Shown here piece after piece: positions 3,837 to 48,738 of a stretch of DNA of 63,744 nucleotides; position 1 is the stretch's first letter, and the number at the start of each line of letters is the position of its first letter. The stretch is from Patescibacteria group bacterium (GTDB lineage: Bacteria; Patescibacteriota; Minisyncoccia; Phycocordibacterales; UBA2100): positions 1 through 63,744 of the forward strand of contig JBBTSX010000001.1 of assembly GCA_038064535.1 (NCBI GenBank), given 5' to 3'. A program made the translations under genes and the position numbers. The notes beneath the pieces are model-generated. The model was not told the DNA's origin. It did no database searches and worked only from the letters and a program-made list of their open reading frames with translations.

Positions 3837-4993
3837 GGCGCTCACTGAATGACGCGGCACAGGCCGGCAAAGACATCGCCTGCCGGCGCCCCCGCGCCCC
3901 TATAGTCGGCCGCCAAAACGCGCGAGGTTCTTTTGCTGCACGGAAAGTCTTTGCCGGCCTGTGCCGCGTCATACCTCCCACGCTAGTCACACTGACACTT
4001 CCCCTCGTCGCCTCCGCGCACGAAGTATACGTACTTGACCAGACGACCGTCTTGCGCGATGTAGCGGCGCAATCTCCGAATCCGTTCACCGCATATACCG
4101 GAAACGAAGCGGACTTCTTTTTTTGGGGTACCGTCTCCCTCGCCACGACCCTCGCCGTCCTGTTTGCGTCGCTCTACCGACGCATAGAGAGCCGGTTCGA
4201 TTCAGTGGTTCGCCAGCTGAAACGCCTTGCTCACCCGATGGCCCGCGTTACTTGTGGAGTGTGTCTCATCGCCTCGGGCTACTACGGAGCGCTTTTCGGA
4301 CCCGAACTGCCTCTTGGCCAACTATTCGGCGTCTCAGGCTCTTTGCTGCAACTCGTTTTCATTGCGGGGGGCGCCCTCATTCTGATAGGACTGTATACTA
4401 CACGCCACGTCGCCGCCATACTGCTTGTTCTCTACCTTTTCGCAGCCAAAGAGGGCGGCTGGTACCTGCTCACCTACGCCAGCTATCTCGGCATGTTCCT
4501 GTTCCTCCTGATTCTCGGCTCGGGCATCTGGTCCGTGGAAAGGACGTACGGACTTAAAACGTTGCCGCGTATGGTTTCCCGGTTTATGCACCGCTTCGAC
4601 CACTTTGCCTTCCCCCTCATGCGCATGCTGTTCGGGATTGGCGTCGTGTACGCGTCGGTATATGCAAAATTCCTGCACTCCCAACTTGCGCTTGATGTGG
4701 TGACACAGTATCACCTGACGAACTATTTCCCGTTCGACCCGCTGTTCATCGTCTTGGGCGCGCTCATTATCGAATTCCTCGCGGGTCTTTTCCTTATTAT
4801 CGGATTCGAGATTCGCTGGACCTGCCTGTTCCTTCTCTTCTGGCTTACGTTGAGCCTTCTCTACTTCGGCGAATCGGTGTGGCCGCACCTGGTGCTTTTC
4901 GGCCTTGGCCTGGCCATCTTCTTTCACGGATACGACAGATACTCCCTCGAGGGAATATTCTTCAAGAAGCGTAAGCTCGAGCCCGTGCTCTAA
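3833..4993 (+). CDS. polytopic integral membrane protein, unknown function
   Basis: ATG 3833 overlaps the upstream stop (ATGA); many hydrophobic helices; first ~45 codons are encoded by a 26-bp inverted repeat, so the true start is uncertain. Confidence 0.6.
   Translation: MRRSLNDAAQAGKDIACRRPRAPIVGRQNARGSFAARKVFAGLCRVIPPTLVTLTLPLVASAHEVYVLDQTTVLRDVAAQSPNPFTAYTGNEADFFFWGTVSLATTLAVLFASLYRRIESRFDSVVRQLKRLAHPMARVTCGVCLIASGYYGALFGPELPLGQLFGVSGSLLQLVFIAGGALILIGLYTTRHVAAILLVLYLFAAKEGGWYLLTYASYLGMFLFLLILGSGIWSVERTYGLKTLPRMVSRFMHRFDHFAFPLMRMLFGIGVVYASVYAKFLHSQLALDVVTQYHLTNYFPFDPLFIVLGALIIEFLAGLFLIIGFEIRWTCLFLLFWLTLSLLYFGESVWPHLVLFGLGLAIFFHGYDRYSLEGIFFKKRKLEPVL
3849..3972. repeat. perfect 26-bp inverted repeat (ATGACGCGGCACAGGCCGGCAAAGAC / GTCTTTGCCGGCCTGTGCCGCGTCAT) with 72-nt spacer
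   Basis: Arms 3849..3874 and 3947..3972 are exact reverse complements; lies inside the annotated 5' end of CDS 3833..4993. Confidence 0.9.
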
Positions 4994-5009: not shown

Positions 5010-5105
5010 CCCCGTTAGAGAAAACTGTCACATGCTTCTCACCGACCCGGCGTTCGGTGAGGCTCCTTTTTGAAAACCGCCGTCTAGTATGTTTCTCTAA
5101 CGGGG
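5010..5105. repeat. family A foldback element copy A1 (CCCCGTTAGAGAAA ... TTTCTCTAACGGGG)
   Basis: 14-nt perfect arms at 5010..5023 and 5092..5105; direct repeat GCGTGC at 5005..5010 and 5105..5110; interior carries a terminator. Confidence 0.85.
5038..5071 (+). terminator. intrinsic terminator after CDS 3833..4993
   Basis: CTCACCGA-cccggcgt-TCGGTGAG followed by GCTCCTTTTT. Confidence 0.65.
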
Positions 5106-5629: not shown

Positions 5630-6310
5630 TTATTGCTGGCTCGATGAGGCGAGTGCCGCATCAATAACCGCCTTGAATGCCGCCGCACTTTGCGGATTCG
5701 GTATCTGTTTGAGGTCGACGAAGAACGTCGGCGTGTGGTTTACCTTCGCGGCGTTTGCGGTTGCCATGTCCGTCTGGATTTTCTGCTTCACTGTCGGCGA
5801 ATTTATGTCCGTATTGAATTTCGCGACATCAAGCCCGAGCGACTGTGCATACACAGCAAGATATTTCGAGACTATCGTACCTGCGGCGGCATCAGACCAT
5901 TCGGCCTGCTTCGCATAGAGGAGGTCGTGCATTTCCCAGTACTTGCCCTGCAAGCCGGCGGCTTCGGCCGCTTGCGAGGTTATCATCCCGTTTTGGTGTT
6001 GGGGAAGCGGATAATTGCGGAATACAAATTTCACGTCGGACGCATACTCTTCTTCGAGCTGTTGCAAGATGGGCTCATACGCGGCGCACGCCGGACATTG
6101 AAAATCTCCGTATGTTATCACGCTGACTTTGGCATTCTTATTGCCGGTCACCCAATCAGCCGGCGTAATGTCCGCTACGGTCGTCGCCTCGAAGCCTCCC
6201 TGCGGCAAGACGGTGCCGGAAGAAGAAAGCCCCGCAATCACGGCAATGGCCACGATGACGACAAGGAAGCCTCCTGCCATCCACATCTGTATTTTCCGGT
6301 CATTTTCCAT
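5630..6310 (-). CDS. membrane-anchored DsbA-like thiol:disulfide oxidoreductase
   Basis: N-terminal TM anchor, thioredoxin fold with CPAC active site (YGDFQCPACAAYEP); adjacent to the BdbC-like gene. Confidence 0.85.
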   Translation of the reverse strand: MENDRKIQMWMAGGFLVVIVAIAVIAGLSSSGTVLPQGGFEATTVADITPADWVTGNKNAKVSVITYGDFQCPACAAYEPILQQLEEEYASDVKFVFRNYPLPQHQNGMITSQAAEAAGLQGKYWEMHDLLYAKQAEWSDAAAGTIVSKYLAVYAQSLGLDVAKFNTDINSPTVKQKIQTDMATANAAKVNHTPTFFVDLKQIPNPQSAAAFKAVIDAALASSSQQ

Positions 6311-9698: not shown

Positions 9699-9992
9699 CT
9701 ACTGCGACGGCATGAACTTCTCGGTGAACTGTTGCCACGCCTTTTGCATATCCGAGAACTGCGCCGAAGCTTGCGCACCGGTACCTTGCATCTGTTTTAC
9801 TGTGTTAAACATCTGGTCCACGACAGGGGCAAGATACTGCATGTAGAACCATATCGGAGCGAGCAGTAGAGCGCCGTATACCATGAAGCTCACAAGCCGG
9901 CTCCAGAACGCCGAGCGCCGCATCTTGTGAAGCAACTTATTGTTCTCGAGCGAAAGACGGTACGTCTCGCGCAGCAAGTCGTCGGATTCCAT
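9699..9992 (-). CDS. hypothetical small membrane protein
   Basis: 97 aa, one strongly hydrophobic helix (LVSFMVYGALLLAPIWFYM); the start codon directly abuts repeat A2. Confidence 0.6.
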   Translation of the reverse strand: MESDDLLRETYRLSLENNKLLHKMRRSAFWSRLVSFMVYGALLLAPIWFYMQYLAPVVDQMFNTVKQMQGTGAQASAQFSDMQKAWQQFTEKFMPSQ

Positions 9993-10109
9993 CCCGTTAG
10001 AAGCAGGACGCGGACAGATGCTCCGCGCATGCTCGGTTAGTTTCTCCTAATGTCGACCATTCTGTACTGTGCATATGTTTTGTATTGTGCGTCCGCGGCT
10101 TCTAACGGG
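9993..10109. repeat. family A foldback element copy A2
   Basis: CCCGTTAGAAGC (9993..) / GCTTCTAACGGG (..10109); flanked by direct repeat GGATTCCAT at 9984..9992 and 10108..10116. Confidence 0.85.
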
Positions 10110-10118
10110 ATTCCATAC

Positions 10119-13625: not shown

Positions 13626-13660
13626 CCGACGCGGCTGTCAGGCGTTCGTGTCGCGAACCA

Positions 13661-13690
13661 CCCCATTAGAAAGCTTCGCTTCTAACGGGG
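13661..13690. repeat. family A short hairpin copy A3
   Basis: CCCCATTAGAAAGC TTC GCTTCTAACGGGG (imperfect). Confidence 0.8.
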
Positions 13691-13705
13691 CAGGCATCGT
13701 GCTGA

Positions 13706-13774
13706 CTATGCATTTGTATCTCGAACCACTTTCAAGAAAACGTCATGTGGTATATCTACCTTGCCGCGCGCGAG
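13706..13774 (-). pseudogene. orphan duplicate of the lepA 3' end (LARGKVDIPHDVFLKVVRDTNA*)
   Basis: 22 codons plus stop align codon-for-codon with the intact lepA tail (13813..13881): 15 synonymous differences, 2 replacements, 5 identical. Confidence 0.85.
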
Positions 13775-13803
13775 CCCCGTTAGAAGCGTTGCTTCTAACG
13801 GGG
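13775..13803. repeat. family A short hairpin copy A4
   Basis: CCCCGTTAGAAGC GTT GCTTCTAACGGGG, perfect 13-bp stem; flanked by direct CGAG. Confidence 0.9.
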
Positions 13804-13812
13804 CGAGCATTT

Positions 13813-15603
13813 TTAGTCTGACGTATCACGGACAACCTTTAAAAAAACGTCATGCGGGATATCAACTTTCCCCCGGGCCAACATGCGCTTCTTGCCTTTC
13901 TTTTGCTTTTCGCGAAGCTTCATCTTGCGCGTGATGTCGCCGCCATACATGTGCTGCGTGACGTCTTTCTTCATCGCGGACTTGCGGCGTGAGGCAAGAA
14001 TGCGTCCCGCCGCCTTCGCCTGAATCTTGAGTTCGAACATTTGCCGCGGCAGAAGTTTTTCAAGTTTCTCCACCATTGCCTCCGCCTCCTGCTGGAGGCG
14101 CCGGCGTGACACGATGCGGGCAAAAGCGGGCATCGGCTCTTCGGCGACCAGCACGTCGAGCCGCACCACATCGGCATCACGCATGCCGATAATTTCGTAT
14201 GAAAGCGACGCGAACCCGCTCGAAACACTTTTGAGCCGGTCAAAAAATCCGCGCATCAGCTCGCGTAGCGGCATTTGCGCGTGGACGCCTGTTTTCCTGT
14301 CCGGTAGCGTTTCGCTCTCTCCGACCACGCCCTCGTGGTCGTACATGAGCTGCGCGATACCGCCGAGGTATTCGGGAGGCGTTATCACCAAGACATTCGC
14401 CCATAGTTCACGGATTTTCTTGGCCCCGCCCTCCTCGGGAAATTTCGCGGGAGCGTACACGTCCTCGACTTCGCCGTTCAGGTGCGTGACCTCGTACGCG
14501 GTCGTCGGCATTGTAACGACAAGATTGAGATTAAATTCGCGCCGTAGACGCTCGACGATTATTTCGAGATGAAGCATACCCAAGAAGCCGCAACGGAATC
14601 CCCTGCCCATAATGCCGGATGATTCTTCTTCGTAGGAGAGCGACGAGTCGGAAAGGCGAAGGCGTTCGAGCGATTGGCGCAATATCACGAGGTCGTCCTG
14701 ACTCTCCGGATACACGCTCGCCCAGATGACTGGCGTCGGTACTGAATATCCCGAAAGAGCGGGTGCCGGATTGCGCACCGATGTTACCGTGTCGCCCACG
14801 CTGGCGACTCCTGGCTTTTTGATGCCTGTCACGATGTAACCAATCTCGCCCTCGGAGAGATGCTCGCGCGTCTTTTCTTCCGGAGACAAAATGCCCACCT
14901 CAAGTGCCGCAAATTCCGCTTTCGCTTCGACGAGTTTCAGTGTATCGCCTTTTTTTATCGAGCCGCCGAACACGCGTGCGTAGACGATAACGCCGCGATG
15001 GTCCGAGTACCCAAAGTCGAAGACGAGCGCCTGCGGGGAGGCTCCGCTCGAGCGCGGAGGCGGGACGCGCTTGACGATGGCATCGAGAACTTCCGGCACA
15101 CCCTCCCCCGTTTTGCCGGAAGCCGGCAACACATCGCTTTCGTCACACCCGAGAAGGCGCGCGAGCTCGGTCGTAATCTCTTGGACACGGGCATTCGGCG
15201 CATCTATTTTCGAAACGACCGGCACGACGACGCGCCCCAATTCGCGCGCGACGGAGAGCACCGAGAGTGTTTGTGCTTCCACACCCTGCGTCGAATCGAC
15301 AAGCAAGACGACGCCTTCGACGGCCGTGAGCGCTCTTGATACCTCGTATGAAAAGTCGACGTGCCCCGGCGTGTCAATGAGATTCAGAACATATTCCGTG
15401 CCGGCATGTTCCCACTGCATACGCACCGGTTGCATTTTGATGGTGATGCCACGCTCGCGCTCGAGGTCCATGCGGTCCAGTACCTGCTCCTGCATTCGCC
15501 GCGGCTCTATCGTGCCGGTGAGCTCAAGCATGCGGTCGGCAAGCGTAGACTTGCCGTGGTCGATATGAGCGATGATGGAGAAATTCCTGATGTTAGCTGC
15601 CAT
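13813..15603 (-). CDS. lepA: translation elongation factor 4 (LepA)
   Basis: MAANIRNFSIIAHIDHGKSTLADR...DTPGHVDF...; 596 aa from ATG 15603; the longer tracked ORF (to 15753, TTG) reads through hairpin repeats. Confidence 0.93.
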   Translation of the reverse strand: MAANIRNFSIIAHIDHGKSTLADRMLELTGTIEPRRMQEQVLDRMDLERERGITIKMQPVRMQWEHAGTEYVLNLIDTPGHVDFSYEVSRALTAVEGVVLLVDSTQGVEAQTLSVLSVARELGRVVVPVVSKIDAPNARVQEITTELARLLGCDESDVLPASGKTGEGVPEVLDAIVKRVPPPRSSGASPQALVFDFGYSDHRGVIVYARVFGGSIKKGDTLKLVEAKAEFAALEVGILSPEEKTREHLSEGEIGYIVTGIKKPGVASVGDTVTSVRNPAPALSGYSVPTPVIWASVYPESQDDLVILRQSLERLRLSDSSLSYEEESSGIMGRGFRCGFLGMLHLEIIVERLRREFNLNLVVTMPTTAYEVTHLNGEVEDVYAPAKFPEEGGAKKIRELWANVLVITPPEYLGGIAQLMYDHEGVVGESETLPDRKTGVHAQMPLRELMRGFFDRLKSVSSGFASLSYEIIGMRDADVVRLDVLVAEEPMPAFARIVSRRRLQQEAEAMVEKLEKLLPRQMFELKIQAKAAGRILASRRKSAMKKDVTQHMYGGDITRKMKLREKQKKGKKRMLARGKVDIPHDVFLKVVRDTSD

Positions 15604-15619
15604 ATAGTTATGCCGCCTG

Positions 15620-15650
15620 CCCCGTTGGAAGCGAAGCTTTCCAACCGGGG
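15620..15650. repeat. family A variant hairpin copy A5
   Basis: CCCCGTTGGAAGC GAA GCTTTCCAACCGGGG (imperfect), 17 nt upstream of the lepA ATG. Confidence 0.8.
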
Positions 15651-15657
15651 TGGTCGA

Positions 15658-15689
15658 CCCCATTAGAGACGCGAAGCGCTCTAACGGGG
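15658..15689. repeat. family A variant hairpin copy A6
   Basis: CCCCATTAGAGACGC GAA GCGCTCTAACGGGG (imperfect). Confidence 0.8.
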
Positions 15690-15693
15690 CGGG

Positions 15694-15733
15694 TATGAGC
15701 GATGATGCTGAAATTGCGGATATTTTCGGCCAT
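15694..15733 (-). pseudogene. orphan duplicate of the lepA 5' end (MAENIRNFSIIAH)
   Basis: 13 codons align with the intact MAANIRNFSIIAH: 4 synonymous differences and 1 replacement; preceded by TATACT (15743..15748); continues as a 41-codon ORF ending 4 nt before the real ATG. Confidence 0.85.
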
Positions 15734-15762
15734 AGTGTAGCGAGTATAGCCAAAATCCCGCT

Positions 15763-28308: not shown

Positions 28309-28338
28309 CCCAATATAGCGATATATCGCTATATTGGG
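28309..28338. repeat. perfect 30-bp palindrome CCCAATATAGCGATA|TATCGCTATATTGGG (family E copy 1)
   Basis: Ends 3 nt before ATG 28342; same core as 28736..28761. Confidence 0.92.
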
Positions 28339-28341
28339 TAG

Positions 28342-28743
28342 ATGGCACATATATCAAAGTTCAGGATGAAACCGGCATTATCGATACGCATCAAGAAAAA
28401 TTTGATGTCTGCTTCTACGCGTAACAGAGGTGTTATGTTGGAATGTTTACTCACGCCGACCGAAACAACAATGCTCGCGAAGCGCCTCGCCATGATTGTT
28501 ATGCTCGAGCGCGGTGATTCGAGCTACCACATCAGCAGGTCACTTCGCGTAAGCGATTCTTCGGTGCAACGATTCAGACGAATGCTTGATGCGGGATTAT
28601 TCAAGCCGGTGGTGAGAGAGCTTCGAAAGAAAAACCGTTCTCTCTTGGATGTGCTAGAGCTCATCCTGTCCGCGGGACTCCCCTCTATCGGCGGTCCGCG
28701 CTCGCAACGACGGCTTCAGAAAATGAGAGATGGGGCAATATAG
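28342..28743 (+). CDS. TrpR/YerC-YecD-like helix-turn-helix protein
   Basis: LLTPTETTMLAKRLAMIVMLERGDSSYHISRSLRVSDSSVQRFRRML resembles the Trp-repressor-like YerC/YecD family. Confidence 0.7.
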   Translation: MAHISKFRMKPALSIRIKKNLMSASTRNRGVMLECLLTPTETTMLAKRLAMIVMLERGDSSYHISRSLRVSDSSVQRFRRMLDAGLFKPVVRELRKKNRSLLDVLELILSAGLPSIGGPRSQRRLQKMRDGAI

Positions 28744-28761
28744 CGATATATCGCTATATTG
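28736..28761. repeat. perfect 26-bp palindrome CAATATAGCGATA|TATCGCTATATTG (family E copy 2)
   Basis: Overlaps the last codons and the TAG stop of CDS 28342..28743. Confidence 0.92.
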
Positions 28762-35565: not shown

Positions 35566-35609
35566 GATATCCCCAAGGGCTTGCTTTTTTCTTGGTTGTG
35601 TGGTATCAT
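35566..35609 (+). promoter_or_regulatory. conserved promoter module 1: box GATATCCCCAAGGGC, -35 TTGCTT, 17 nt, -10 TATCAT
   Basis: Same box, -35 and spacing at 35963..36006 and 41559..41602. Confidence 0.65.
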
Positions 35610-35659
35610 CCCATCTAGCTTAATTGGAGCTGGCCAATCATGGCCACAGAGAGGACGAC

Positions 35660-35833
35660 ATGAAAAAACTTATGCTCGCTGCCGTGGCTCTGGTTGCGCT
35701 TGCGTCTCCGGCGTTCGCCTTCGCGAACGATGGGACGCCACAGTCCGCTGCCATGACCACGACGACGCCCGCGTCTCCGGCGTCCGCCCCCGTGAACGAC
35801 GGCACGCCCCCAAGTTCCTCTACCAATCGCTAA
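35660..35833 (+). CDS. small secreted peptide 1 (57 aa)
   Basis: MKKLMLAAVALVALASPAFA signal peptide; mature part has two NDGTP repeats and is Thr/Pro/Ser-rich; AGAGAGGA region upstream of the ATG; terminator downstream. Confidence 0.6.
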   Translation: MKKLMLAAVALVALASPAFAFANDGTPQSAAMTTTTPASPASAPVNDGTPPSSSTNR

Positions 35834-35962: not shown

Positions 35963-36006
35963 GATATCCACAGGGGCTTGCTTTTTACACGATTATGTGG
36001 TACGAT
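35963..36006 (+). promoter_or_regulatory. conserved promoter module 2: box GATATCCACAGGGGC, -35 TTGCTT, 17 nt, -10 TACGAT
   Basis: See module 1; downstream 5' UTR contains the identical 21-nt GGAGCTGGCCAATCATGGCCA. Confidence 0.65.
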
Positions 36007-36052
36007 GTCCCCCAGTTGTTAGGAGCTGGCCAATCATGGCCAAGGAGGACAA

Positions 36053-36346
36053 ATGAAACACATCGTTCTCGTTGCTTTGGCCATGATGGGATTCACCGCC
36101 GTGGCCAATGCGCTGAGTCTCGAGAAGTACGAGATAATCTTTCAGCCGCTGGGGCTGGAACGTGCAGTGAAGGTCAACGGCATGGACTGCCTTATGACCA
36201 CGCCGTACGACACGCACGCGCGATGCGGCACTGAACGGGTCAACCTTAAGCGCTGTGAATTTCCGGCGTTCGAGGGTGGAAGCCTTGTTTGTCATCTCGC
36301 CCCCCCGTGGCCGCCCACTGCTCCAACCCACAACATCCGCCGCTAA
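36053..36346 (+). CDS. small secreted Cys-containing protein 2 (97 aa)
   Basis: AAGGAGG-N5-ATG; signal peptide MKHIVLVALAMMGFTAVANA; 4 Cys in the mature part. Confidence 0.6.
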   Translation: MKHIVLVALAMMGFTAVANALSLEKYEIIFQPLGLERAVKVNGMDCLMTTPYDTHARCGTERVNLKRCEFPAFEGGSLVCHLAPPWPPTAPTHNIRR

Positions 36347-36452: not shown

Positions 36453-36743
36453 ATGGTAGAGAAATGGAGCAGACGCGATGTGTTGAAACGTGCGGTCGTT
36501 GCAGGAGCCGCACTCACTTTGGGGGCACGCGAAGGTGTCGCAAAGCAAAGCCCGTCCAACGACATGCCTGCCGTAACAGAGTCATCTGTCAAAGACCGGG
36601 AGGAAATTCAGGAATTGGATAGAATAAACCGTGAGATGCAGGATGCGATTAAAAAAGGAGATTTGGAGAAAATACGGAGACTGACCGATGACCTCGAGAA
36701 TCACCTCAAGCGACTAATGGAACGCGAGGGTAAACCCCGTTAG
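36453..36743 (+). CDS. small Tat-signal protein with coiled-coil C-terminus (96 aa)
   Basis: TAGTAT (36440..36445)-N7-ATG 36453; MVEKWSRRDVLKRAVVAGAALTLGA twin-arginine signal; last two codons and the stop come from repeat A7. Confidence 0.6.
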   Translation: MVEKWSRRDVLKRAVVAGAALTLGAREGVAKQSPSNDMPAVTESSVKDREEIQELDRINREMQDAIKKGDLEKIRRLTDDLENHLKRLMEREGKPR

Positions 36744-36833
36744 AAGCTCACGCGGGGTATTGAACCCCACGTTCGCATAATTGATTTGACATTCCTCCGC
36801 GGCAAGCCGCGGGGCATTCTGCTTCTAACGGGG
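36735..36833. repeat. family A foldback element copy A7
   Basis: CCCCGTTAGAAGC (36735..36747) / GCTTCTAACGGGG (36821..36833); direct repeat GGTAAA at 36729..36734 and 36832..36837. Confidence 0.85.
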
Positions 36834-44536: not shown

Positions 44537-44647
44537 CCCCGTTAGAAATCGAGGGCACACGTTCAATTGCCCACCTCTCCAAGACAGATATGGAAGACAA
44601 CTCTCCCAATGATGACAGTGCTCGCGTATCGTTTATTTCTAACGGGG
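44537..44647. repeat. family A foldback element copy A8
   Basis: CCCCGTTAGAAAT (44537..44549) / ATTTCTAACGGGG (44635..44647); contains the only in-frame ATG (44590) of the downstream gene. Confidence 0.85.
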
Positions 44648-46470: not shown

Positions 46471-46586
46471 CCCCGTTAGAAATTACGGACTGTAAAACAA
46501 ACGGGGTAACTTATCAAAAACAAAATTTATGAACCAATCAAACAACAGGCATTCAGTTTCGGGGCACCGCCCTATTTCTAACGGGG
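46471..46586. repeat. family A foldback element copy A9
   Basis: CCCCGTTAGAAAT (46471..46483) / ATTTCTAACGGGG (46574..46586); direct repeat TGGAA at 46466..46470 and 46587..46591; a degenerate extra arm CACCCCGTGAGAGAAAT follows. Confidence 0.85.
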
Positions 46587-46644
46587 TGGAACTTCACCCC
46601 GTGAGAGAAATACTCCGGTCTTCCAGAAAAACACAGAACATACT

Positions 46645-48738
46645 ATGAACAAAAACTACAGTAACAATTCCGACGCCCTCTCTCACGGGGCAAGCCCTGA
46701 ATTTTCCAACAAAGGCCTGCCTGCGTCGGGCGAATACGCGCGGCAGGCAGGCGGCGCCTACGTACCGGCCCCGCAGGGGCGCGGCCAAAGCGGACCCACG
46801 CGACACAGCCCTTCACGAGGAACCCCCTCGCGCCTGCCTGCGTCGCACGCGTCGCCTGCCCGCGCGGAGCACGCAGGCGGGCGGCAGGCAGGCCACGGCC
46901 CACAGCGTGAACCCCAGCGCGGACCTGCGCGAGGACGCCCCGGTAGCGCACCGCGCCGCCGACCGCTCCACCTGCGACCTGCGCGCCCGCCCCGCGGACG
47001 CACGAAGGTCGAGCATCAGGCTCCGACGAGCCGCTCTATGCACGCCGGCCCCGCCATCCCGCCGCCCGCGCCCGACACGGTGCGCATCATTCCGCTCGGC
47101 GGCGTCGAAGAAGTCGGACGGAACATGACCGCCGTCGAATTCGGCAACGACATCTTTATCCTCGACTGCGGATTCCAATTCAGCGAGGACGAAACACCGG
47201 GCATCGATTACATCCTTCCGAATACAGGTTATCTCGAAGAGCGTCGCGACAAAATCCGCGGTCTCATCATCTCGCACGGCCACCTCGACCACATCGGCGG
47301 TATCCCCTACATCCTCGACCGCATCGGCAATCCGACCATCTACACTCGCAAGCTCACGGGCAAAATGATTCAGAAGCGCCAAGAGGAATTTGCACAAACG
47401 ATTCCCGTCACCATTCGCGAAGTCGAAAAGGACGAAGTGATAAAGCTCGGCGCGGCGACCATCCGCTTCTTCGGCGTGACGCACACCGTGCCGGATTCTA
47501 TGGGTATCATCATTGAGACACCGTACGGCGACGTCGTATTCACCGGCGACATCAAGCTCAATCACGAGAACGGCGAACCTTCCGACGAAGAAAAACGCGA
47601 GTTCGGCATCTTCAAAGAGCGCAAAGTACTCGCGCTCCTTATGGACTCGACCAACGTCTGGCAGCCGGGCTTCTCCATTCCCGAGAGCACGGTGTACCGC
47701 ACACTTGAGAAAATCATCGAAGAGTCTAAAGGCCGCCTCATCATCGCGATGTTCGCCTCGCACCTTGAGCGTCTTATCCGCGTCGTGCACTTCGCCGAGC
47801 AGTACGGCAAGAAAATCGTCATCGACGGCCGCTCAATGCGCACCAACATCGAAATAGCGCGCGAGATAGGCCTCATCAAGTACAAAGACGACACCGTCAT
47901 CGCTGTCGAGAACATGGGCCAATATCCCAAAGAGCGCATCATCATCCTCGCGACCGGTGCGCAAGGCGACGAATTCGCCAGTCTCGCCCGCATAGGCAAC
48001 AAATCGCACAAGTACATCCGCCTCGAGCCGACCGACACCATCGTCCTCTCCTCGTCGGTCATTCCGGGCAACGAACGCGCCGTGCAGAAGCTCAAAGACA
48101 ATCTCTCGCGTCAGGGCGCGCATATTATCACCTACCACGCCTCCGACGTGCACGCCTCAGGTCACGGCAATCGCGAGGAAGCGGCATGGATACACAAGCA
48201 AATCCGGCCGAAATTCTTCATCCCCGTCCACGGTTATCACTACATGTTGCGCGTGCACGGCGACCTCGCCGTCGAGATGGGCGTCCAGCCGCAAAATGTC
48301 TGCATCCCCGACAACTCTTCTGTCGTTGAAATAATCGCCGGCGAGAAAATCGCGAAGCACGCAATCAAGGCTCCGTCCGAATTGCGCGTGGTGGAAGGCC
48401 AGACCGTCTCTGAACTGAGCGATGTCCTCATGCGCGACCGCAAGGCGCTCGGACAGGAGGGATTCTGCGTCGTCGTCGCGACGGTAGACCGCCGCACGGG
48501 CAAGCTCCACAAATCCCCCGACATCATTTCCCGCGGATTCGTGTACCTGCGTGACAACAAAGAGCTGATGGATCAGACGCGCCTCATCATCCGCAAATCA
48601 GTAGAGACCTCGATGCGCAATCCGCGTGCCGCAGACCTCGACGTCGCCCGCGACGACCTCGCCGAAGCCGTCTCCCGCTTCTTGCTGCAGCGCACCATGA
48701 AGCGTCCCATCGTGATTCCGGTAATAGTTAGCATCTAA
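46645..48738 (+). CDS. rnj: ribonuclease J (metallo-beta-lactamase / beta-CASP) with Arg/Pro-rich N-terminal extension
   Basis: VRIIPLGGVEEVGRNMTAVEF...ISHGHLDHIGG...; canonical-length product would start at ATG 47038; 46645..47037 is GC-rich repeat-derived sequence open in several frames. Confidence 0.88.
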   Translation: MNKNYSNNSDALSHGASPEFSNKGLPASGEYARQAGGAYVPAPQGRGQSGPTRHSPSRGTPSRLPASHASPARAEHAGGRQAGHGPQREPQRGPARGRPGSAPRRRPLHLRPARPPRGRTKVEHQAPTSRSMHAGPAIPPPAPDTVRIIPLGGVEEVGRNMTAVEFGNDIFILDCGFQFSEDETPGIDYILPNTGYLEERRDKIRGLIISHGHLDHIGGIPYILDRIGNPTIYTRKLTGKMIQKRQEEFAQTIPVTIREVEKDEVIKLGAATIRFFGVTHTVPDSMGIIIETPYGDVVFTGDIKLNHENGEPSDEEKREFGIFKERKVLALLMDSTNVWQPGFSIPESTVYRTLEKIIEESKGRLIIAMFASHLERLIRVVHFAEQYGKKIVIDGRSMRTNIEIAREIGLIKYKDDTVIAVENMGQYPKERIIILATGAQGDEFASLARIGNKSHKYIRLEPTDTIVLSSSVIPGNERAVQKLKDNLSRQGAHIITYHASDVHASGHGNREEAAWIHKQIRPKFFIPVHGYHYMLRVHGDLAVEMGVQPQNVCIPDNSSVVEIIAGEKIAKHAIKAPSELRVVEGQTVSELSDVLMRDRKALGQEGFCVVVATVDRRTGKLHKSPDIISRGFVYLRDNKELMDQTRLIIRKSVETSMRNPRAADLDVARDDLAEAVSRFLLQRTMKRPIVIPVIVSI
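46715..46752. repeat. family D GC-rich hairpin (GCCTGCCTGC ... GCAGGCAGGC)
   Basis: 10-bp complementary arms inside the rnj 5' extension. Confidence 0.75.
46832..46893. repeat. family D GC-rich hairpin, longer copy
   Basis: Same arms GCCTGCCTGCGTCG (46832..) and CGGCAGGCAGGC (..46893) as at 46715..46752. Confidence 0.75.

Follow-up and report, generated by a model that had tools for sequence, protein, structure and literature searches.

Diverged copies of its own ends flank lepA in a groundwater Kaiserbacteria bacterium and in related lineages

In a stretch of 63,744 nt (the window) from a groundwater Candidatus Kaiserbacteria bacterium of the Candidate Phyla Radiation (CPR), the gene lepA, which encodes the translation factor EF4, is flanked by diverged copies of its own ends. 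One orphan head stands 5' of the intact gene, and two nested orphan tails follow it on the 3' side. Direct reading of the sequence bears out an earlier note on this DNA that had described such flanking copies; its inventory of one head and one tail fragment stands, and a second, older orphan tail that it had overlooked has to be added. Functional and orphan copies differ almost only synonymously, which indicates that both evolved as functional sequence in separate lineages before they were juxtaposed. We propose, with a probability of roughly 0.45, that the gene ends were displaced by recombination with related alleles, nucleated by lepA-specific palindromes, and that the resulting structures then spread by ordinary recombination. 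Literature searches returned no account of such a lepA structure.

Old and new ends of lepA in the window

All features lie on the minus strand and are described in the direction of the gene. The 5' part runs from the stop codon of MurJ through a TATACT box, the orphan head, CCCG with palindrome A6, TCGACCAC, palindrome A5 with CAGGC, and GGCATAACTAT to lepA. The -10-like TATACT box (15743..15748) ends 9 nt before the orphan ATG, and its upstream context is identical in the sister genome L001 (Rifle, Colorado), where it stands immediately before the lepA ATG. From this context, the box is the ancestral promoter of lepA, probably a leaderless one. The left part of the orphan head (15694..15733; ATG..GCT CAT A, MAENIRNFSIIAH) is apparent from direct reading. 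It is followed by CCCG and A6 (15658..15693; palindrome 15658..15689, fold -17.5 kcal/mol), and the orphan resumes straight afterwards with TCGACCAC (15650..15657), an exact 8-nt continuation of the lepA head that supplies codons 14-16 (I-D-H) and whose final C is shared with A5. Counting these codons, the orphan head is at least 16 codons long. The earlier note had correctly seen its position and the TATACT box, and had taken it to be cut off at the hairpins. As the orphan resumes past A6, A6 is a secondary insertion into the orphan head; orphans likewise resume past a palindrome in the related loci L119, L089 and L125. The next unit (15615..15650) is lepA-specific and consists of A5 (15620..15650) and CAGGC (15619..15615), with CAGGC towards the gene; together with the A3 unit of the 3' side it forms a 42-nt inverted repeat. 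The segment GGCATAACTAT (15604..15614) holds the TAA of a 41-codon open reading frame (ORF) begun at the orphan ATG. By direct reading it matches GGCAAGTCTAC at 7 of 11 positions and is possibly a decayed remnant of orphan codons 17-20.

Functional lepA (13813..15603) is an ORF of 596 aa that is congruent with MurJ, and the called gene carries the Pfam domains from GTP_EFTU to LepA_C. Its current head (codons 1-16, 15556..15603) is the new one by codon sharing: it has AAC-ATC-AGG and a TCN serine codon in common with L001, and the orphan head has AAT and an AGC serine codon in common with the outgroup L088. The two heads differ by three synonymous changes among 13 codons compared (NIRNFSIIAHIDH), not by four synonymous changes and one replacement as counted previously.

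The 3' part consists of tail 1 with TAA, AA, ATGCTCG, A4 with CTCG, the rest of tail 2 with TAG, TCAGCACGAT, GCCTG, A3 and tail 3. The current tail, tail 1 (13813..13887; RMLARGKVDIPHDVFLKVVRDTSD and stop), is inserted relative to L001 in the pairwise alignment and differs synonymously from L088 at 19 of 20 codons. Orphan tail 2 (13706..13810) reads ATGCTCG, A4 with the CTCG repeat, then CGCGCGGCAAG..GCATAG; its main part, LARGKVDIPHDVFLKVVRDTNA and stop, occupies 13774..13706. Its orthologue is the true tail of L001, which differs from it at 7 of 72 nt. Since the ATGCTCG before A4 (13775..13803, with a CTCG direct repeat) is part of tail 2, A4 and the repeat are a 33-nt stop-free insertion within the orphan, and reading across the hairpin yields the ORF MLAPLEATLLTGLARGK.. 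Beyond tail 2 lies an inverted lepA-specific unit (13661..13705) composed of TCAGCACGAT, the remnant H-D codons of tail 3, GCCTG and palindrome A3 (13661..13690). Homologous units sit at the same site in L001, L116 and L026. Tail 3 (13638..13660; (V)VRDTNA and stop) is the oldest, ancestral tail; it has its orthologue in the L001 orphan at 5919..5953 and its closest match in the true tail of L088. Palindromes thus lie within the orphan copies, and do not, as stated before, separate the fragments from the intact gene: once they are removed, old and new ends stand in tandem, 0-6 nt apart.

Tails 1 and 2 share 6 identical codons, one more than previously noted, and differ by the 15 synonymous and 2 replacement codons already counted. 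When we pooled 10 functional/orphan pairs drawn from at least 8 lineages, 42 codons were identical, 81 differed synonymously and 11 were replacements; random mutation to the same nucleotide distance would give 70 +/- 3.7 replacement codons. The synonymous switches include multi-step exchanges such as Ser AGC/TCC and Arg CGC/AGG. This supports the previous proposal that the two versions had evolved as functional genes in different lineages. In addition, the C-terminus is common to both copies lineage by lineage (RDTNA/RDTNA in L001, RES/RES in L116 and L026), and the donors must therefore be related lineages.

These displaced ends mislead gene callers. The public lepA call (13813-15663) comprises 616 aa, the first 20 of which are a false extension through A5, and the lepA products P0015 and P0083 of relatives bear comparable artefactual N-terminal extensions. 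Exact-protein look-ups matched the 616-aa call and gave no record for the 596-aa or 646-aa lepA versions and none for P0122.

Descent of the gene body and recurrence in related lineages

MurJ and LepA place the relatives in identical rank order. The lepA interior is about 90% identical to L001, and the LepA proteins are about 92-96% identical, depending on how a 24-aa insertion of L001 is treated. Neither the 5' block of 130 nt nor tail 1 (77 nt) is present in L001, whose working tail is tail 2, followed by the stop codon, 10 nt, GCCTG, a palindrome and the orphan FLKVVRDTNA with its stop. Relative to L001, 28% of the amino-acid-identical codons differ synonymously overall, as compared to 13 of 19 within the first 20 codons and 14 of 19 within the last 20. 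On this sequence comparison the lepA body is vertically inherited, and only its ends are foreign. The congruence of MurJ and LepA and the interior identity to L001 rule out that a hairpin-led cassette replaced the whole lepA interior, which had been the preferred reading of the earlier note. Of its alternative, an element carrying replacement ends, the import of foreign ends remains; the hairpins are insertions within the old copies.

The next relative, L088 (87% identical), has neither orphans nor palindromes. Its tail codons match tail 3 at 6 of 10 positions and tail 2 at 2 of 10. Together with the matches to L001, this identifies tail 3 as ancestral, with tail 2 acquired before the split of window and L001, and tail 1 after it. 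Two or three separate events at the least are therefore needed to produce the 5' and 3' structures, and one of them took place before the split from L001. Judged from very short sequences, the new head may predate this split as well, and a deletion between the two head copies could have removed the orphan from L001.

The metagenomic source, the presence of related Kaiserbacteria in the same wells and the susceptibility of assembly graphs to confusion by palindromes are what would favour a chimeric assembly in which co-occurring strains had been fused at palindromes. A 70-kb contig from Hainich groundwater is identical to the window, and a replicate assembly made from a different filter (22 kb, coverage 6) shows 100% identity over 8.2 kb with all junctions covered. 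The lepA locus, fragments included, is the same letter for letter in the replicate assemblies R3 and R2. The copies are direct and not inverted repeats, and data sets that stem from different sites and were built with different assemblers show the same architectures. As tail 3 and its hairpin unit have orthologues in the Rifle genomes L001/L090, a chimera is very unlikely and the least probable source of the structure.

Genome and metagenome scans centred on lepA revealed this layout in at least 8 further lineages. Orphan heads with palindrome and CAGG(C) are present in L089 (of which L083 is a derived form), L119 and L125, and form one 5' type together with the window. Past the unit, the orphans of L089, L119 and L125 resume (ATTGATCAC, ATCGACCAC and TTGCCCAC) and end 1-6 nt before the new ATG. 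Two further pairs, L007/L099 and L016/L114, have 5' orphans with an unrelated 120-nt element. On the 3' side, the type I architecture (stop, 9-10 nt, GCCTG, hairpin, orphan from a Val codon) is shared by the window, L001, L116 and L026; homologous spacer, GCCTG and palindrome interrupt one and the same Val codon in L116 and L026. The type II architecture (stop, 2 nt, ATGCTCG, family-A hairpin, CTCG) is found in the window and L102. By direct comparison, the type-I units of L001 and L116 differ at 4 of 35 nt, two of which form a compensatory stem pair, and LepA synonymous sites are near saturation at a comparable distance (55% of amino-acid-identical codons differ between the window and L003). 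In L102, the replacements bunch in the first five orphan codons past the hairpin, a pattern that would be expected from a crossover that renewed the remaining orphan.

Several neighbouring features of these loci are of interest in their own right. A conserved element of about 120 nt lies between orphan and new heads in L007 (752-872), L016 (3882-4000) and, partially, L086 (~2470-2510). Towards its 3' side the element (GTGAGCGATGA / GCGAGCGATAA) runs antisense to the codons for I-I-A-H in the new head, and this part shows covariation with an ATC/ATT change; the elements of L007/L016 have no Rfam match. In L083 (2094-2939), about 950 nt replace the region upstream of the lepA orphan when compared to the near relative L089. 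The replacement encodes a 281-aa signal-peptide protein without Pfam match and ends in a family-A-like arm (CCCCGTTGG), leaving ATAATTGCGCAT as sole remnant of the orphan head.

The palindromes are 30-35 nt long, GC-clamped and fold strongly as single sequences, with the stable central loops GCGAAGC / GCTTCGC on opposite strands. Within 1.18 Mb of window and loci, the latter themselves lepA-centred, all genuine palindrome+CAGG units are located at lepA. They occupy the orphan head, the orphan tail (inverted) or an in-frame variable loop near codon 65 (L102), and the CAGGC side always points towards the functional gene. The functional start or stop codon is 14-18 nt away from the foot of the hairpin in CAGGC units, and 9 nt away in type II architectures. 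Repetitive extragenic palindromic sequences are imperfect palindromes of 20-40 nt with a conserved GTAG-type head; the lepA palindromes fit as such, the type-I unit contains CCCC-GTAG, and family A contains GTTAG. Palindromes that are in frame and free of stops within coding sequence are A4 in the orphan, and those of L102 and L001 within functional lepA. The latter two are insertions into the variable loop after MQPVRM. In L001 (~4195-4270) the insertion comprises 72 nt (HPEVSSIKYQVSKSPTLIPDTSDLIPSDS); in L102 (1653-1691) it is a family-A hairpin with CAGG, and the native P-V-R-M codons at the same time form the left arm of this hairpin.

Family A has terminal inverted repeats with 13-nt arms, CCCCGTTAGAAGC/GCTTCTAACGGGG, at 10 sites of the window, and loops of 3 to 10 nt. 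Target-site duplications are present as CTCG at A4 and at the L102 hairpin and as CGTG, TTCCA, TAAA, CGGA and TGGAA at five other window elements; none was found at A3, A5 or A6. The flanking direct repeats of 4-5 nt indicate that these elements are insertions. An inverton or a dif/lox-like site was considered for family A and dropped because of the loop lengths and the flanking repeats.

Elsewhere in the window, the CCCCGTTAGAAGC...GCTTCTAACGGGG arms bracket segments of 94-119 nt at 5010-5105, 9992-10110, 36735-36833, 44537-44647, 46471-46586 and 46597-46690, most of which are bordered by 4-5-nt direct repeats. Two of these six elements contain annotated start codons, namely those of RNase J and an SBP_bac_5 gene, and one extends DsbB by extra codons at its end. 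The interiors of the six bear no relation to each other (z <= 3.1), unlike MITE copies descended from one parent element, and Pfam identified no transposase among the window ORFs adjoining the family-A elements outside lepA. Rfam returned only tRNAs plus lepA-antisense noise. A protein-level self-scan of all 64 kb found duplicated gene ends of this kind at lepA only. At the DNA level, self-comparison of the window uncovered direct repeat pairs at 28311-28337 / 28736-28760 (~425 nt apart) and 35606-35670 / 36003-36060 (~396 nt apart) that flank small ORFs.

A possible route to displaced gene ends

From these data we infer a possible order of steps. Small palindromes resembling repetitive extragenic palindromic (REP) sequences or miniature inverted-repeat transposable elements (MITEs) would enter the first ~16 or the last ~23 codons of lepA, either as a 30-35-nt hairpin with CAGGC or as a family-A hairpin alone, which duplicates 4 nt of the target. 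The damaged end would then be bypassed by an intact copy of the segment from a related lepA allele, joined by homology within the conserved gene body on one side and non-homologously, 9-18 nt from the hairpin foot, on the other; the old end would be left as an orphan with the palindrome inside. Finished structures may subsequently pass between related lineages by homologous recombination, whereby the working end of the recipient becomes a fresh orphan. This would explain why orphans look recently functional and differ only synonymously. Under this scheme, three or more layers would be preserved in the window: tail 3 gave way to tail 2 before the L001 split, probably together with the arrival of the new head, and tail 2 gave way to tail 1 later.

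Expression of the displaced 5' end may have been maintained by translational coupling. In the relatives, a -10-like box lies ~7-12 nt before the lepA ATG, and this short distance suggests leaderless mRNAs. Translation may start at the orphan ATG behind the old promoter, read through the palindromes, stop at the new ATG and re-initiate there. The ORF that begins at the orphan ATG spans 29-53 codons across the insert in each of the six 5' cases and stops within -4 to +17 nt of the new ATG; that of the window ends 4 nt before it. The chance that the inserted parts are free of stops is ~0.005 by rough estimate. Termination-reinitiation from the orphan ATG would fit these read-through ORFs.

Several observations weigh against displacement by recombination. 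No donor of tail 1 was found among ~170 loci (the best match, 47/60 nt, equals background), and the loci compared contained no donor lineage for the new head either. In the window, the two head copies are short and show little divergence. Its foreign tract appears to start almost exactly where the duplication starts; the model does not require this, and it is tolerable only since the Lys-rich stretch upstream is too conserved to reveal a foreign origin. The scheme offers no reason for the specificity for lepA and no selective or drive advantage, and no nuclease or transposase was detected in the window ORFs tested or beside any element. Finally, at least six distinct lepA architectures in one clade are many for a rare illegitimate event, and this number suggests a dedicated mechanism.

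Such a mechanism could be a site-directed mobile element, in which a trans-acting enzyme, e.g. a single-strand nuclease of the HUH/RAYT (REP-associated tyrosine transposase) or IS200/IS605 kind, recognises palindrome+CAGGC and cleaves at a set distance from the foot of the hairpin. Such an element would home into lepA carrying or provoking a replacement end, and the host gene would survive without splicing. It is a serious rival because many independent architectures exist and because hairpin and junction are spaced at fixed distances (14-18 nt or 9 nt). It would also account for the strict orientation of the units and their restriction to lepA, for the clustering of 5' breaks, across independent lineages, within ~10 nt of the P-loop codons, which extends to the second, unrelated 120-nt element of L007/L016, and for the new tails of window and L102, which both lack the ATGCTCG target (ATG TTR GCN). 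However, no such enzyme was detected among the ORFs named above, the new ends except those of L007/L016 have diverged between lineages like host genes and not like an element, the insertion points within the orphans vary (codon 11, 13 or 16), and the two junctions have no conserved identical core. On the whole we regard a dedicated element as unlikely. Rather unlikely is also the related idea that the palindrome+CAGGC unit is a lepA-specific selfish element which provokes or carries a recoded duplicate of the gene end, relies on termination-reinitiation at the 5' end and spreads by a hairpin-guided nuclease. A site-specific integrative element with the gene end in its attP does not fit, as there is no ORF between the copies and no shared core at the junctions; an identical stretch of 14 nt is confined to the head pair of the window and absent from the other cases. 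A diversity-generating retroelement was rejected, since the differences hit all bases, are synonymous and not A-specific; the neighbourhood listings included no reverse transcriptase.

The hairpins might alternatively be later neutral insertions into dead DNA, if natural transformation gave rise to each structure separately through homology-facilitated illegitimate recombination. The topology of such recombination fits, A4 (with its clean CTCG duplication) and A6 resemble secondary insertions, and family-A elements with 4-5-nt flanking repeats exist elsewhere in the window. That junction and hairpin site coincide in window and L102, and again across three type-I lineages, is very unlikely to be due to chance; moreover, every orphan contains a palindrome despite only ~10 family-A elements in 64 kb, and the lepA-centred loci and the window have no CAGGC units in other non-coding DNA. 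Independent recombination each time is thus quite unlikely. The tandem order of the copies, 0-6 nt apart without hairpins, would be consistent with duplication of the gene end in situ followed by divergence. Tails 1 and 2, however, differ at 15 of 21 amino-acid-identical codons, in an event that is younger than the window/L001 split (28%), and a dead copy would have gathered stops and replacements, of which ~70 are expected and 11 are seen. In-situ duplication accordingly merits very little credence. Displacement by recombination with related alleles, initiated at palindromes, is the reading we favour.

Comparison with known systems

The locus shows how recombination and insertion can recur at a single hotspot, a conserved housekeeping gene of streamlined CPR genomes, where successive exchanges between lineages leave a readable stack of fossil gene ends. 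Displaced ends also provide natural markers to date and trace gene flow among uncultured Patescibacteria. Should the palindromes direct the process, this would represent a new mobile-element lifestyle inside an important gene without splicing; if they are selfish units, it would be a third persistence strategy beside the splicing of introns and inteins.

The closest parallel is provided by the loci of Rhs, CdiA and type VI secretion system (T6SS) effectors, in which another strain supplies a new 3' end to a conserved gene body and the previous end is left as an orphan downstream. For the orphan arrays of T6SS/Rhs, homology-facilitated illegitimate recombination followed by spread through homologous recombination has been proposed (PMC5361080). 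Nested arrays record successive events there, as do tails 1, 2 and 3 here, from the youngest to the oldest. In contrast to Rhs and contact-dependent inhibition (CDI) loci, the ends of lepA encode the same C-terminus, and there is no toxin/immunity diversification; in addition, lepA is a housekeeping translation factor, its 5' end is displaced too, and each orphan holds a specific palindrome.

Integrative elements may carry a replacement gene end in their attachment site, as known for the 3' ends of tRNA and tmRNA genes and for SXT in the 5' end of prfC. There, as at lepA, the target gene is kept intact by an incoming diverged copy of the interrupted end, and the displaced fragment remains. The lepA structure differs in having no integrase, no cargo and no identical att core, and the inserted DNA amounts to ~75-130 nt in all. 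With REP sequences, bacterial interspersed mosaic elements (BIMEs), Rickettsia palindromic elements and MITEs, the lepA palindromes share their small size, GC clamps and stable central loops, the 4-nt target duplication (A4, L102) and stop-free insertion in frame. Unlike these, the CAGGC class is restricted to one gene, has a fixed orientation and is tied to duplicated gene ends, a link that is not a known property of any of these families. Homing introns, inteins and free-standing endonucleases likewise invade the most conserved segment of a conserved gene repeatedly, here the P-loop codons, and there too the target is removed by flanking synonymous recoding; lepA has neither a splicing element nor an endonuclease ORF, and its function is rescued by duplication of the end. 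What is new about the lepA structure is hence the setting in which known ingredients come together: it concerns both ends of a housekeeping gene, with same-sense replacement and a gene-specific palindrome.

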